IMG/VR virus record: IMGVR_UViG_2671180755_000015
Source: a virus
Taxonomy: Duplodnaviria > Heunggongvirae > Uroviricota > Caudoviricetes
Length of the DNA: 9,584 bases
Direction: 5' to 3' (one strand)
Notes under the pieces: model-generated
Database searches by the model: none
Seen by the model: only the letters and a program-made list of their open reading frames with translations
What the model was told of the DNA's origin: nothing
Program-made: the position numbers and the translations under genes
Shown: positions 25-2,660 of the stretch, piece by piece
How positions within the stretch are numbered: position 1 is the stretch's first letter
Layout: the number at the start of each line of letters is the position of its first letter

Positions 25-100
25 CGATAAAATCAAAAAAATGCGCTTCTTTCCGCGCCGCCCGCCCCGTGTTCAGGCCCACCCCACCAGGAGGACCCGC
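25..100. repeat. Conserved ~75-nt element, copy A (paired with 2560-2637)
   Basis: By hand alignment roughly 80-85% identical to 2560-2637 in the same orientation (about 9 mismatches and 3 single-base indels). C-rich on plus strand, G-run-rich on minus strand. Lies directly beside the capsid-gene terminator. Confidence 0.7.
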
Positions 101-122
101 AAAAAAGGCGGCTGGTGCCGCC
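101..122 (-). terminator. Intrinsic terminator after the protease-capsid gene
   Basis: Hairpin GGCGGC-TGGT-GCCGCC (107-122) begins 6 nt after the capsid stop (129-131) and on the minus strand is followed by U6 (complement of A 101-106). Confidence 0.75.
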
Positions 123-128
123 TTGTTG

Positions 129-2018
129 TCATAGTGAATCTGTCCCGCCTGATTTGACCATACCGCGATAATCCAGAGCTGCCACACCTGCATCAATACG
201 GACTTTCCAGGCCACGCCGTCAACGATAAAACCTTCCTGCTGTTCAAGGTAAGGCTCGTCATTGCCATCAAGATAAGCCACCTCGATTGTGTCCGTTCCC
301 TGTGCGGAAAGCATGTACCATTGTTTTTCGCTGATATCATCAAGGCGGGGATCGACGATGATATCAAGTAGCTTGTGATACGGGTTAAAGATCCCGCTGT
401 TTTTATCAGCCCCGAAAGGTGCGGTTGAGTTAATCATCTGCAACGCGCGATCTTCCAGTGCTGCCGGAACTAAAAGGAATTTAGGCGCAATATTCAGCAC
501 TTCGCCATTTTTGTCCTTCTGTGTGCGCATCAGGTGACGTGCTGCACTAAGTCCCGGTGTTGTCAGTCCTGCTTCAATCAGGTTGCTGTGTTTTTTGTCA
601 AACAGCGCTATTCCGTCAGAAAGTTTTACGTTGCCTGTAAGCACCAGATTAACCAGATTTCCCACCGTTCTTGATGCAGCACGGCCCATAGCCATTGGCA
701 CCGTTGATAACTGATCAAGGTCATCATTGATTATCGCCTGGCGGGTAATGCTGAAAATATTCCCGTAAGTAGCCAGCGCGATGGGTTCACCGCGATCGCT
801 GGTGGTGATGTATTTATATTCTGCCCCTTCCGGCACTTTGTTTAACGTTGAGAAGCCATTCATACCAACGCGGCGGGCTTCCCGGAAGTTTGAAAGGGAA
901 CCTTTTTTCGTCCACTGGCGGAATGTTTCGCCGCTGTGCTCCCAGCCTGCAAGCACTGATTTTTCAGCGCCACCAGCAAGAATATCGGTAAAATCGCTGC
1001 TGCTGTGGGTGAATGCCGCGTTTACTATCTGCGAGCGTGTGCCGTAGCTGCCCGTGCTTATACCACGATGGGTTAATGATGCCTGTGCCATATCGAAAAG
1101 GCTCATCATGGCGTAAGGATTACCGCGTTCGGCCCGTTCGTGACCAAGACGCGCATTAAGCCCCTGGCGCATTGCATCGCCGGTTATGTTGCCGTTATCC
1201 GTGTACGCGTAGTAAAGATTTGCGGGGGTGGTTTTGTTTGTTGGCGTTGATTCTTTACCCATAGCGAGTAAAAGGCGTTCGCGTGCATTCTCAACGCTAC
1301 ATTCTGAATCAGCAAGACAACTTATAGCCAGGTCGTTATATCTTCCGTTGAACGTGCCAAACAATTCACGGATGCCGTTAAGTCGTTCCTGTTCGCCACT
1401 GGTAGTTTTCTGGCTGATCATGCTTTTAATTTTTTCCGGCATATTTGAAAAATCTCCGATTCGTTTTGATTCAATTCGGGCCATTGCTGTAATCGCGGGT
1501 ATAACCTCATCTGCGAAGCCGTTAGCCTTACACTCATTGCCATCCATCCAGGTTTCCGCCTCCATCATGGCGGTGATTTCCTGTTTGCTCCTGCCCGTTC
1601 TTCCGGCGTAGGTTTCCGCCATCGTGTCGCCCAGCTTGTCCATCAGGTCAGCAAAGCGGCGAACGTCGCCCGACACTCCGGCAGTAACACCACGGGGGGC
1701 ATGTATCATCATCATCGCGTTTTCAGGCATAACGATGTGATCGCCACACATGGCAATAAACGAGGCCATAGAAGCCGCCATGCCTTCAATGTGTACAATT
1801 TTCTTTGCCGGATGATTTTTCAGGGCGTTATAGATAGCCAGCCCTTCAAAGATGTCGCCACCAGGTGAATGGATGCGAAGATGGATTTCAGACGCATTAC
1901 CACACGCGTTGATCTCGTCAGTAAGTGCCGATGCTTTTACACCGTACCCGCCGATCTCGTCATAAATGCGCACATAGACAACATCTGCCATAGCCTTAAT
2001 GGAAAACCATGTTTTCAT
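129..2018 (-). CDS. Prohead protease (ClpP/S14-like) fused to an HK97-fold-type major capsid protein
   Basis: 629-aa ORF. The N-terminal ~190 aa carries ClpP-family signatures (serine motif GMAASMASF, histidine motif MMMIHAPRG). The remaining ~430 aa has the length and character of a scaffold-linker plus major capsid protein. The ATG at 2016-2018 overlaps the stop of the upstream small ORF (ATGA). Family assignment is from motif recognition only. Confidence 0.8.
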   Translation of the reverse strand: MKTWFSIKAMADVVYVRIYDEIGGYGVKASALTDEINACGNASEIHLRIHSPGGDIFEGLAIYNALKNHPAKKIVHIEGMAASMASFIAMCGDHIVMPENAMMMIHAPRGVTAGVSGDVRRFADLMDKLGDTMAETYAGRTGRSKQEITAMMEAETWMDGNECKANGFADEVIPAITAMARIESKRIGDFSNMPEKIKSMISQKTTSGEQERLNGIRELFGTFNGRYNDLAISCLADSECSVENARERLLLAMGKESTPTNKTTPANLYYAYTDNGNITGDAMRQGLNARLGHERAERGNPYAMMSLFDMAQASLTHRGISTGSYGTRSQIVNAAFTHSSSDFTDILAGGAEKSVLAGWEHSGETFRQWTKKGSLSNFREARRVGMNGFSTLNKVPEGAEYKYITTSDRGEPIALATYGNIFSITRQAIINDDLDQLSTVPMAMGRAASRTVGNLVNLVLTGNVKLSDGIALFDKKHSNLIEAGLTTPGLSAARHLMRTQKDKNGEVLNIAPKFLLVPAALEDRALQMINSTAPFGADKNSGIFNPYHKLLDIIVDPRLDDISEKQWYMLSAQGTDTIEVAYLDGNDEPYLEQQEGFIVDGVAWKVRIDAGVAALDYRGMVKSGGTDSL

Positions 2019-2209
2019 AGCCAGGCCCCTAACGTTGCCCTGTACCAGTATTCAACCGCGCTGCGTGTGATTTGTCCTTTCGTGGGTACTGGCATACCCG
2101 GGTGATTATCTTTGATGAACTGCTGATAGCGTTCGATCTTCTCCATAGTTCCGGCGTCTATGTGTACCGTGGCACTTTTATCCGGCTTTCTGGTGTTGTT
2201 CTCTGGCAT
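2015..2209 (-). CDS. Small protein (64 aa from preferred start) translationally coupled to the capsid gene; function unknown
   Basis: The ORF track gives 2015..2242 (75 aa), but its first ATG-ATG has no Shine-Dalgarno. The in-frame ATG at 2207-2209 is preceded by GGAGG at 7-nt spacing. The stop TGA overlaps the capsid ATG. Confidence 0.5.
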   Translation of the reverse strand: MPENNTRKPDKSATVHIDAGTMEKIERYQQFIKDNHPGMPVPTKGQITRSAVEYWYRATLGAWL

Positions 2210-2330
2210 AAATCCGCCTCCGTTTTGATTAACGGGCATCATTATTGATCGATAAAAGTAATAGATAAATAATTTTCTACCTGAAAATCAGATTATGATT
2301 TTTCTGATTATTCTCAGAAAGGCAAAGTTA

Positions 2331-2359
2331 TTGACGCATTTTTGCCATTGAAGCAGTAT
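2331..2359 (+). promoter_or_regulatory. Candidate sigma70-like promoter on plus strand (-35 TTGACG, 17-bp spacer, -10 CAGTAT)
   Basis: TTGACG at 2331-2336 and CAGTAT at 2354-2359. A transcript from here would end at the 2404-2440 terminator. The match is weak at -10. Confidence 0.25.
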
Positions 2360-2403
2360 TAAGACTCGTCATCCTGGCGATAAAAACTCCTTTGTCGTGT
2401 AAA

Positions 2404-2440
2404 AGCGCCTCCGGTAACAGCAATCGGGGGCGCTTTTTTT
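2404..2440 (+). terminator. Intrinsic terminator, strongest on plus strand (possibly bidirectional)
   Basis: 10-bp stem AGCGCCTCCG / CGGGGGCGCT (one G-U pair) with an 11-nt loop, followed by T7 on the plus strand. An A4 run upstream gives only a weak U4 tail on the minus strand. Confidence 0.65.
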
Positions 2441-2559
2441 GCGCCTGTTTTTTGTAAATGTTTTCGGGAACGTTCCAGCGATGAACAAAAAACAACCTAA
2501 TTCGACACTAAAAATTTTTATTTCTCAACATATCAATAGCTTATAGTGGTGGTGATGGT

Positions 2560-2637
2560 GCCATAAAAATCAAAAAATGCGCCTTTTTCCGCGCCCCTCC
2601 GCCCCGTGGACAGGCCCACCCCGCCAGGAGTACCTAC
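2560..2637. repeat. Conserved ~75-nt element, copy B (paired with 25-100)
   Basis: Same element as 25-100 in the same orientation. Lies directly beside the SSB-gene terminator. Confidence 0.7.
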
Positions 2638-2660
2638 AAAAAAGCCGGATTTTCTCCGGC
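2638..2660 (-). terminator. Intrinsic terminator after the SSB gene
   Basis: Hairpin GCCGGA-TTTTC-TCCGGC (2644-2660) begins 8 nt after the SSB stop (2669-2671) and on the minus strand is followed by U6 (A 2638-2643). Confidence 0.75.

Follow-up and report, generated by a model that had tools for sequence, protein, structure and literature searches.

The 9,584-nt viral sequence IMGVR_UViG_2671180755_000015 (Caudoviricetes), the whole of which we refer to as the window, contains two similar segments in the same orientation that bracket a capsid gene cassette. As judged by sequence comparison, both repeats are very probably co-oriented cos sites of the phage lambda type, belonging to a satellite that resides within a lambdoid prophage of the Shiga toxin (Stx) type; that they are cos-derived packaging signals is, if anything, slightly safer still. 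The left repeat (copy A) and the right repeat (copy B) are both read for packaging along the window minus strand and have a cosQ/cosN core in common. The sequence beyond this core, here called the cosB arm, is of type I in copy A and of type II in copy B. As a satellite cos site the element is of a known kind, and its arrangement, which is mildly new, looks like direct mimicry of two classes of helper prophage.

Anatomy of the two repeats

Read on the minus strand, both copies present the same order of parts: the T-run of a terminator, cosQ, a 21-nt G-rich spacer, the putative cosN (ACG|GGGCGG...GCG|CGG), a conserved right flank, a tract resembling a TerS site, an IHF site at +62 and the remainder of cosB. 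Of these subsites, cosQ serves packaging termination, cosN is nicked and cosB binds TerS and IHF (PMC9026076). The portion of cos A that lies within the window (1-100, minus strand; cosQ, cosN, right flank and the first TerS-site-like repeat) aligns with lambda cos and with the cos upstream of terS in the prophages of two E. coli loci, L001 and L002, that carry this satellite. It reads TTTTGC-GGGTCCT-CCTGGTGGGGTGGGCCTGAAC-ACG|GGGCGGGCGGCG|CGGAAAGAAGCGCATTTTTTT..., and its lambda counterpart is GGGTCCT-(20 nt)-ACG|GGGCGGCGACCT|CGCGGG. The heptamer GGGTCCT, present at bp 48473-48479 of lambda (coordinates checked in the lambda record), is lambda cosQ (Wieczorek and Feiss 2001), and cosQ A (92-98, minus strand) is identical to it. 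The putative cohesive-end segment of cosN A, GGGCGGGCGGCG (56-67, minus strand), was placed by alignment with lambda GGGCGGCGACCT, the nicks being set by analogy, and is identical to cosN of the L001 helper prophage. The string ACGGGGCGG, followed by GCG|CGG, is common to lambda and the element, and the pattern GGGTCCT-N(18-26)-ACGGGGCGG was found a single time in the window and never in 200 shuffles. A degenerate pattern, GGTNCTCCYGGYGGGGTGG, searched across genome contigs gave only chance matches, which fell in GC-rich genomes. Finally, in all members of this cos family an IHF-consensus site with 0-1 mismatch was found at +61 to +63, numbered from the base with which the putative cohesive end begins; lambda I1 scored at +79 in the same scan.

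The helper prophage contains a third copy of the element, in the intergenic region immediately upstream of terS (19119-19229 in L001, 19178-19272 in L002). The DUF1441 gene that follows this helper cos belongs to phrog_141, the terminase small subunit. In phage mEp460 the element is likewise found 106-190 nt ahead of the terS ATG; 1720a-02, VT1-Sakai, CP-1639 and several Stx2 phages have it upstream of terS, and in 60 prophage loci it is co-oriented with terS and 100-190 nt upstream of it. None of the matching phage records ended inside the element, since mEp460 begins at the terS ATG and the other matches are internal. The cosQ heptamer, the spacing, the start of cosN, the fixed IHF site and the position upstream of terS are the grounds on which we assign the element to the lambda type of cos site. 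The initial annotation of this DNA had listed a protein-binding site among several possible roles, and that idea agrees well with what appears to be the anatomy of a site recognized by phage terminase and IHF. By analogy with lambda, helper TerS would bind cosB after excision and replication of the satellite, IHF would bend the DNA, TerL would introduce staggered nicks at cosN, and packaging would proceed toward lower window coordinates.

The cosB arm of copy A begins with an R3-like element, ATCGTCATCATCATCATG (11-28, minus strand), that is one half of an inverted repeat (GATGATGATGA / TCTTCATCATC), the other half lying at a distance of 42 nt. Copy A thus reads ATCGTCATCATCATCATG...AAGATGATGAAGAAGG, with inverted GATGATGA repeats 42 nt apart, and the same arrangement and spacing occur in the L002 helper cos. 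An IHF-like site with one mismatch lies at +62, between the arms of the inverted repeat. This cosB arm extends about 130 nt past the left edge of the window (L001 7872-8000). Copy B occupies 2475-2637 (minus strand), where alignment delimits a variant cosQ, cosN, the right flank, an IHF site and the type II cosB arm; it is 92% identical to the L001 helper-prophage cos over 101 nt. Its cosQ position (2629-2635, minus strand) reads AGGTACT, a 5/7 match to GGGTCCT. The variant heptamer is present in about half of the orthologous B copies, and the rest have GGGTCCT. The putative cohesive-end segment of cosN B, GGGCGGAGGGGCG (2592-2604, minus strand), is 13 nt long by analogy, and a perfect IHF consensus, TATCAATAGCTTA (WATCAANNNNTTR), lies on the plus strand at 2531-2543, +62 from cosN B, as the counterpart of lambda I1. 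The type II counterpart of the R3-like tract, GGCACCATCACCACCACT (2545-2562, minus strand), can be aligned to the corresponding tract of the L001 prophage and of phage 1720a-02, and like both of these copy B reads GGCACCATCACCACCACT...TTTTTAGTGTCGAAT.

Similarity and limits of the repeats

The two segments were first noticed by hand alignment, and their similarity was upheld by formal comparison. Alignment of window 1-140 with 2530-2680 by MAFFT gave 84% mean column identity, and blastn gave 86.3% identity across 73 nt (E 2.4e-11, 27-kb database). The longest direct repeat of the window (13-111 / 2550-2648) is 99 nt long with a spacing of 2537 and has 74% identity ungapped and about 85% gapped, the longest perfect matches between A and B within the window being about 10-12 nt. 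The similarity begins at the T-run of each flanking terminator. The first of these terminators, which ends the protease/capsid gene (101-122, minus strand), is an 8-bp GC-rich hairpin followed by U6 in the predicted fold, and its T-run abuts cosQ A; the second, which ends the SSB gene (2638-2661, minus strand), was recovered by a terminator scan (2661-2643) with 7 pairs, 5 of them GC, and a T-run that abuts cos B. The initial annotation was correct that a terminator of a minus-strand gene stands beside each copy (hairpin plus T-run at 122-101 and 2661-2643), that the two hairpins differ in sequence and that generic terminator structure does not account for the conserved part. Its length of about 75 nt is much too short for the homology to helper cos, which runs for about 200 nt in copy A, beyond the left edge of the window, and about 165 nt in copy B. 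The triplet-repeat tract that it listed as a shared feature is instead the point at which the copies diverge (11-28 versus 2545-2562).

Upstream of cosQ, phages have an AT-rich palindrome, ATGA[C/T]AACCATTATCAT, followed by a T-run (L001 19230-19250, L002 19270-19290), and lambda has the corresponding palindrome ATGATAATCATTATCAC and T-run at 48450-48470. In the satellites the same position is taken by the GC-rich terminator hairpin, and thus a hairpin plus T-run before cosQ is common to all.

Three other origins for the repeats were rejected. The cosB arm of each copy is nearer to a helper cos than to its partner copy, and therefore an internal duplication is excluded; the possibility of a recent, strain-specific duplication, raised in the initial annotation, also fails in that the arrangement is found in every sampled relative. 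Repetitive extragenic palindromes, bacterial interspersed mosaic elements (REP/BIME) and other host repeats are excluded because all E. coli matches are in a prophage or satellite context. The repeats are not att sites, as the att core lies elsewhere, at window 9552-9563 and at the other island end about 795 nt to the left of the window. This 12-bp core reads CCCTCCATCCAA at both ends of the island in L001 (7205-7216 / 17552-17563) and CCCTACATCCAA in the window and in L002.

Two cosB types and two helper classes

Identity between the cosB arms of A and B is 63%. The arm of A is 80% identical to that of the L002 helper, and the arm of B is 75-77% identical to that of the L001 helper over 135 nt. 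Among relatives of the satellite, A copies are 85-89% identical to the L002 helper cos over 203 nt and B copies are 90-96% identical to the L001 helper cos over about 167 nt.

To class the sites we scanned IMG/VR for the exact pattern with the shared spacer and sorted the resulting 100 loci, which are close relatives rather than independent samples, by cosB type and neighbouring genes. A type I cosB stood beside the terminase small subunit TerS_I in 38 of 38 prophage loci, and a type II cosB beside TerS_II in 22 of 22. In the cassette-bearing satellites the site that follows the SSB gene (B) was of type II in 22 of 22 cases and the site that follows the capsid gene (A) was of type I in 17 of 17. 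By a more sensitive search, both sites were found in every cassette satellite that covers both positions. TerS_I and TerS_II share 57% identity in residues 1-60 and 91% in residues 61-158, and by analogy with lambda Nu1 the differing residues 1-60 would be the DNA-binding part. The layout is that of the specificity difference between lambda and phage 21 (PMC9026076). Satellites 99.9-100% identical to the window reside in helpers of both types, that of L001 being type II and that of L002 type I; further satellites were found in type II (L086) and type I (L042, L057, L059, L070, L079) helpers.

These findings suggest that the two cos sites, both active, allow helpers of either TerS class to package the satellite. 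If the repeats are indeed cos sites we consider this about an even bet, and taken over all it falls somewhat short of even. The fuller proposal, in which cos A would work with TerS class I and cos B with class II while the capsid cassette is moved among divergent satellites by recombination at cos, is tentative. Dual helper specificity is in any case a deduction from sequence.

Several points weigh against the reading of the repeats as two working cos sites with dual specificity. The pairing of cosB type with TerS class may be due to linkage alone, because the E. coli prophages are close relatives and fewer than 200 bp separate the two features in them, and the conservation of B among satellites says little about constraint because the cassette is nearly identical among them (difference 0.01-0.03). 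No clear R repeats were found in the type II cosB of copy B. Analogy with lambda is the basis for the nick positions and for cohesive ends of 12-13 nt, and the ends so predicted for A and B are mutually non-complementary. With its 5/7 cosQ and altered cosN, copy B may fail to terminate packaging or be inactive. Moreover, a second cos need not be of benefit, because in the phage-inducible chromosomal island (PICI) EcCICFT073, where both cos sites work on plasmids and cos1 is required, deletion of cos2 raised transfer (PMC6092414).

Alternative explanations

That the conserved segment has an RNA-level role, acting in the sense transcript downstream of each gene as an additional weak terminator, insulator or G-quadruplex, is very improbable. 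Such a role was suggested by the G-runs (GGGG-T-GGG...GGGG-C-GGG) and the GCGC mini-stem followed by a U-run that both copies have. The four minus-strand G-runs coincide, however, with the cosQ-cosN spacer and cosN, and their middle loop is 9 nt whereas the quadruplex motif has loops of 1-7. Fold energies did not differ from those of shuffled sequences (z-scores of -1.28, -1.05, +0.21 and -1.73 for the two copies, each folded on both strands), the copies have different predicted structures and share none apart from the flanking terminators, and the sole common stem, the 4-bp GCGC, has no compensatory change. In phages, moreover, the element lies upstream of terS and not at a gene 3' end behind a terminator. 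A search of Rfam at E<=1 gave no family on the element and five matches elsewhere in the window, all below gathering score; these included microRNA-like matches on the iteron region and snR75 and ctRNA_p42d at 2312-2442. Of the ideas in the initial annotation, neither the tandem-terminator or insulator module, nor the structured or G-quadruplex RNA, nor the Rho-utilization-like strand found support.

A more serious competitor, to which we give about the same tentative weight as to the fuller proposal above, is that only A works in packaging and that B is left over from recombination with, or capture of late genes from, a type II helper, being now dispensable or mildly harmful. It stays alive because B has a variant cosQ and a variable cosN centre: the heptamer is degenerate in the window and about half of the orthologues, while the core of A is almost invariant across relatives, and the core of B is only 83-86% identical to every other core. 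The gain in EcCICFT073 transfer on loss of cos2 points the same way, and cycles of late-gene capture followed by loss have been proposed by Tommasini et al. (PMC10111431). However, the cosN centre also varies among helper prophages that are presumably functional (4 variants in type I), and lambda cosQ is needed for termination and not for initiation (PMC9026076), so that B, if it is not decaying, could initiate packaging without terminating it. Against a relic also stand the presence of a type II B in all 22 of the cassette-bearing satellites sampled, the 90-96% identity to type II helpers that its cosB arm and perfect IHF site retain, and the occurrence of the satellite within type II helpers (L001, L086).

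The remaining alternative, that the repeats matter mainly as recombination joints through which a mobile capsid cassette is swapped or deleted by way of cos-core homology or terminase-made breaks, we think unlikely as the principal explanation. The evidence for it is taken up in the following section. On the other side, such joints are a consequence of having two homologous sites and provide no alternative identity for them; perfect A/B matches of about 10-12 nt at most would be a poor RecA substrate; and the capsid-less form with a single cos is possibly ancestral rather than a deletion product.

Proposed recombination at cos

We return to the reading of the repeats as cos sites, which leaves room for recombination as a secondary property. 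Among 16 satellites having two cos sites, the mean pairwise difference was 0.28-0.38 in the SSB gene, 0.14 in the interval spanning the cos B core and 0.01-0.03 in the cassette, and then rose to 0.05 after the cos A core and 0.15-0.21 in the following gene, which encodes a 94-residue protein. The break in diversity is sharp at cos B and weaker at cos A. Because satellite diversity changes so sharply at cos B, the cos-to-cos capsid cassette behaves like a module of recombination, and the cos sites, as shared homology at the module borders, are also the joints for exchange or loss of the cassette. Two relatives, L049 (6853) and L064 (2328), lack the ClpP/capsid cassette and have one hybrid cos, which combines a B-like terminator and cosN with a type I cosB; the gene usually found after A follows this hybrid in L049. 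These could be products of deletion between cos B and cos A, or they could represent an ancestral single-cos state. The diversity breaks and the capsid-less relatives with a hybrid cos accord with the homology arms, permitting exchange or deletion of the cassette, that were suggested in the initial annotation.

The satellite island and its genes

The window is 99.9-100% identical to E. coli chromosomes. According to the annotation of L001 and L002 it belongs to an island of about 10.35 kb that interrupts terL of a lambdoid prophage, lying between the N- and C-terminal terL fragments, and the prophage of L002 carries stx1. The window starts about 795 nt inside the far end of the island, and its last 20 nt or so are helper terL. 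In RefSeq (L001, L002) the island genes, all on one strand, encode an integrase (int), an AlpA-like helix-turn-helix protein, a BRO-N protein, an Icd-like protein, a DUF4222 protein, a primase, SSB, a 64-residue open reading frame (ORF) and a ClpP-protease/capsid fusion. By this content and location the island qualifies as a PICI of the helper-embedded kind (HE-PICI).

The cassette between the cos sites consists of a gene for a fusion of a ClpP-like prohead protease to the major capsid protein (129-2018, minus strand; Pfam CLP_protease and Phage_capsid_4, and RefSeq annotation) and the 64-residue ORF (2015-2209, minus strand; phrog_4934, function unknown). The satellite capsid fusion has about 52% amino acid identity to its helper homologue, whereas in the non-coding cos arms the identity to helper cos is 85-96%. 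The satellite SSB gene (2669-3079, minus strand; Pfam SSB) is the last gene of a variable replication module that lies upstream of cos B. Of 5426 complete E. coli genomes, 143 contain the entire cos-capsid-cos cassette. Satellites of this family thus occur in at least 143 of those 5426 genomes, many of them within Shiga toxin prophages, where they interrupt the terminase gene.

Other features of the island may be recorded here. Just left of the window, at L001 7587-7871, a 94-residue ORF (phrog_1561, function unknown) comes after cos A in the way that terS comes after phage cos and rpp after PICI cos; it is a variable gene at the downstream border of the cassette, with 77-90% identity among relatives. 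Between cos B and the small ORF, window 2401-2446 contains a GC-rich dyad, AAAAGCGCCTCCG...CGGGGGCGCTTTTTTTGCGCC, that has T-runs on both strands and looks like a bidirectional terminator; it gave a weak sub-threshold match to Rfam ctRNA_p42d (E 0.26). A dense array of GGTGAACAGT iterons in both orientations (3398-3601), just downstream of the primase gene, is presumably a replication origin and gave the spurious microRNA-like Rfam matches. Inverted copies of CTGGATTCCAGTATA (6342-6356 / 6406-6420) in the divergent intergenic region of the Icd-like operon and a YlcI/YnfO-like gene appear operator-like.

Implications

As packaging signals, the repeats bear on how the satellite is mobilized and which prophages can be its helpers. 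If the two sites do have different TerS specificities, one satellite would parasitize both classes of lambdoid/Stx prophage and would thereby have widened its helper range. The arrangement would then answer, for this family, the question of multi-cos PICIs left open by Fillol-Salom et al., and would supply two naturally occurring, orthogonal cos/TerS specificities. The cos-bounded cassette also illustrates the movement of capsid genes between satellites.

Comparison with known systems

One of the closest known systems is lambda cos, with its R3-I1-R2-R1 cosB. The cosQ heptamers are identical, the distance from cosQ to ACG is 21 nt here and 20 nt in lambda, the cohesive end starts ACG|GGGCGG, an IHF site lies downstream of cosN and, in type I, inverted TerS-site-like repeats flank the IHF site. 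Unlike lambda, the sites reside in a satellite, behind gene terminators, with IHF at +62 rather than +79 and predicted cohesive ends of GGGCGGGCGGCG or GGGCGGAGGGGCG rather than GGGCGGCGACCT. The core is about 58-62% identical to that of lambda and cosB about 45-50%, and the helper TerS belongs to the DUF1441 family whereas that of lambda is Nu1.

PICIs are known to carry helper cos sites (PMC6092414, PMC6739421), and a close parallel is the cos1/cos2 pair of EcCICFT073. It too is a Gram-negative PICI having two cos sites, cosQ and cosN as in its helpers, differing cosB sequences and a capsid-related gene. Its cosN, however, is of the lambda type and its cosB is unlike that of the helper, the divergent cosB of cos1 being read by an Rpp-TerS complex in which Rpp retargets TerS (PMC6739421). 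In the present island, embedded in helper terL, both cosB arms are close to helper cosB. A search for Rpp-like or TerS-like relatives of the 94- and 64-residue ORFs gave no significant PDB sequence match (RppC included) and no Pfam match, BLASTP of the 94-residue ORF against TerS gave no match, and public sources name both ORFs only as hypothetical. Thus the Rpp mechanism is not encountered here, given the likeness of both cosB arms to helper cosB and the failure to detect an Rpp-like protein beside either site.

HE-PICIs resemble this island in their int/alpA, Bro, replication and late zones and in their co-oriented location inside a helper late gene, as in 11capE, which resides in 50icd. Their insertion sites include terL (A:Terminase_1:245) (Tommasini, Mageeney and Williams 2023, PMC10111431). 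At the position of lambda cos, 11capE has a 258-bp segment in common with its helper at 90% identity (PMC10111431). That study, however, describes one shared cos-like segment, in an element of the lambda-E type, and has no pair of two cosB types flanking a ClpP/capsid-fusion cassette (PMC10111431).

Satellites P4 and SaPIbov5 are also packaged by cos and copy helper cos for use by the helper terminase, but their helper families and cos sequences are unrelated to those described here, and P4 has a single cos. For SaPIbov4, two putative cos sites have been reported.

At tRNA-Pro, E. coli Nissle 1917 (L006) carries a related PICI with three cos-like sites, at 13095(-), 10655(-) and 9716(+). One of them is a type I site of the present cos family and follows the SSB gene, and the other two are lambda-type (GGGCGGCGACCT), lie in opposite orientations and flank a Nu1-like gene.

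A literature search found no paper on two cos sites of different cosB type that mimic two helper classes. Two cos sites in one PICI are already known from EcCICFT073, and what is new in the present satellite is that each copy resembles a different helper class.

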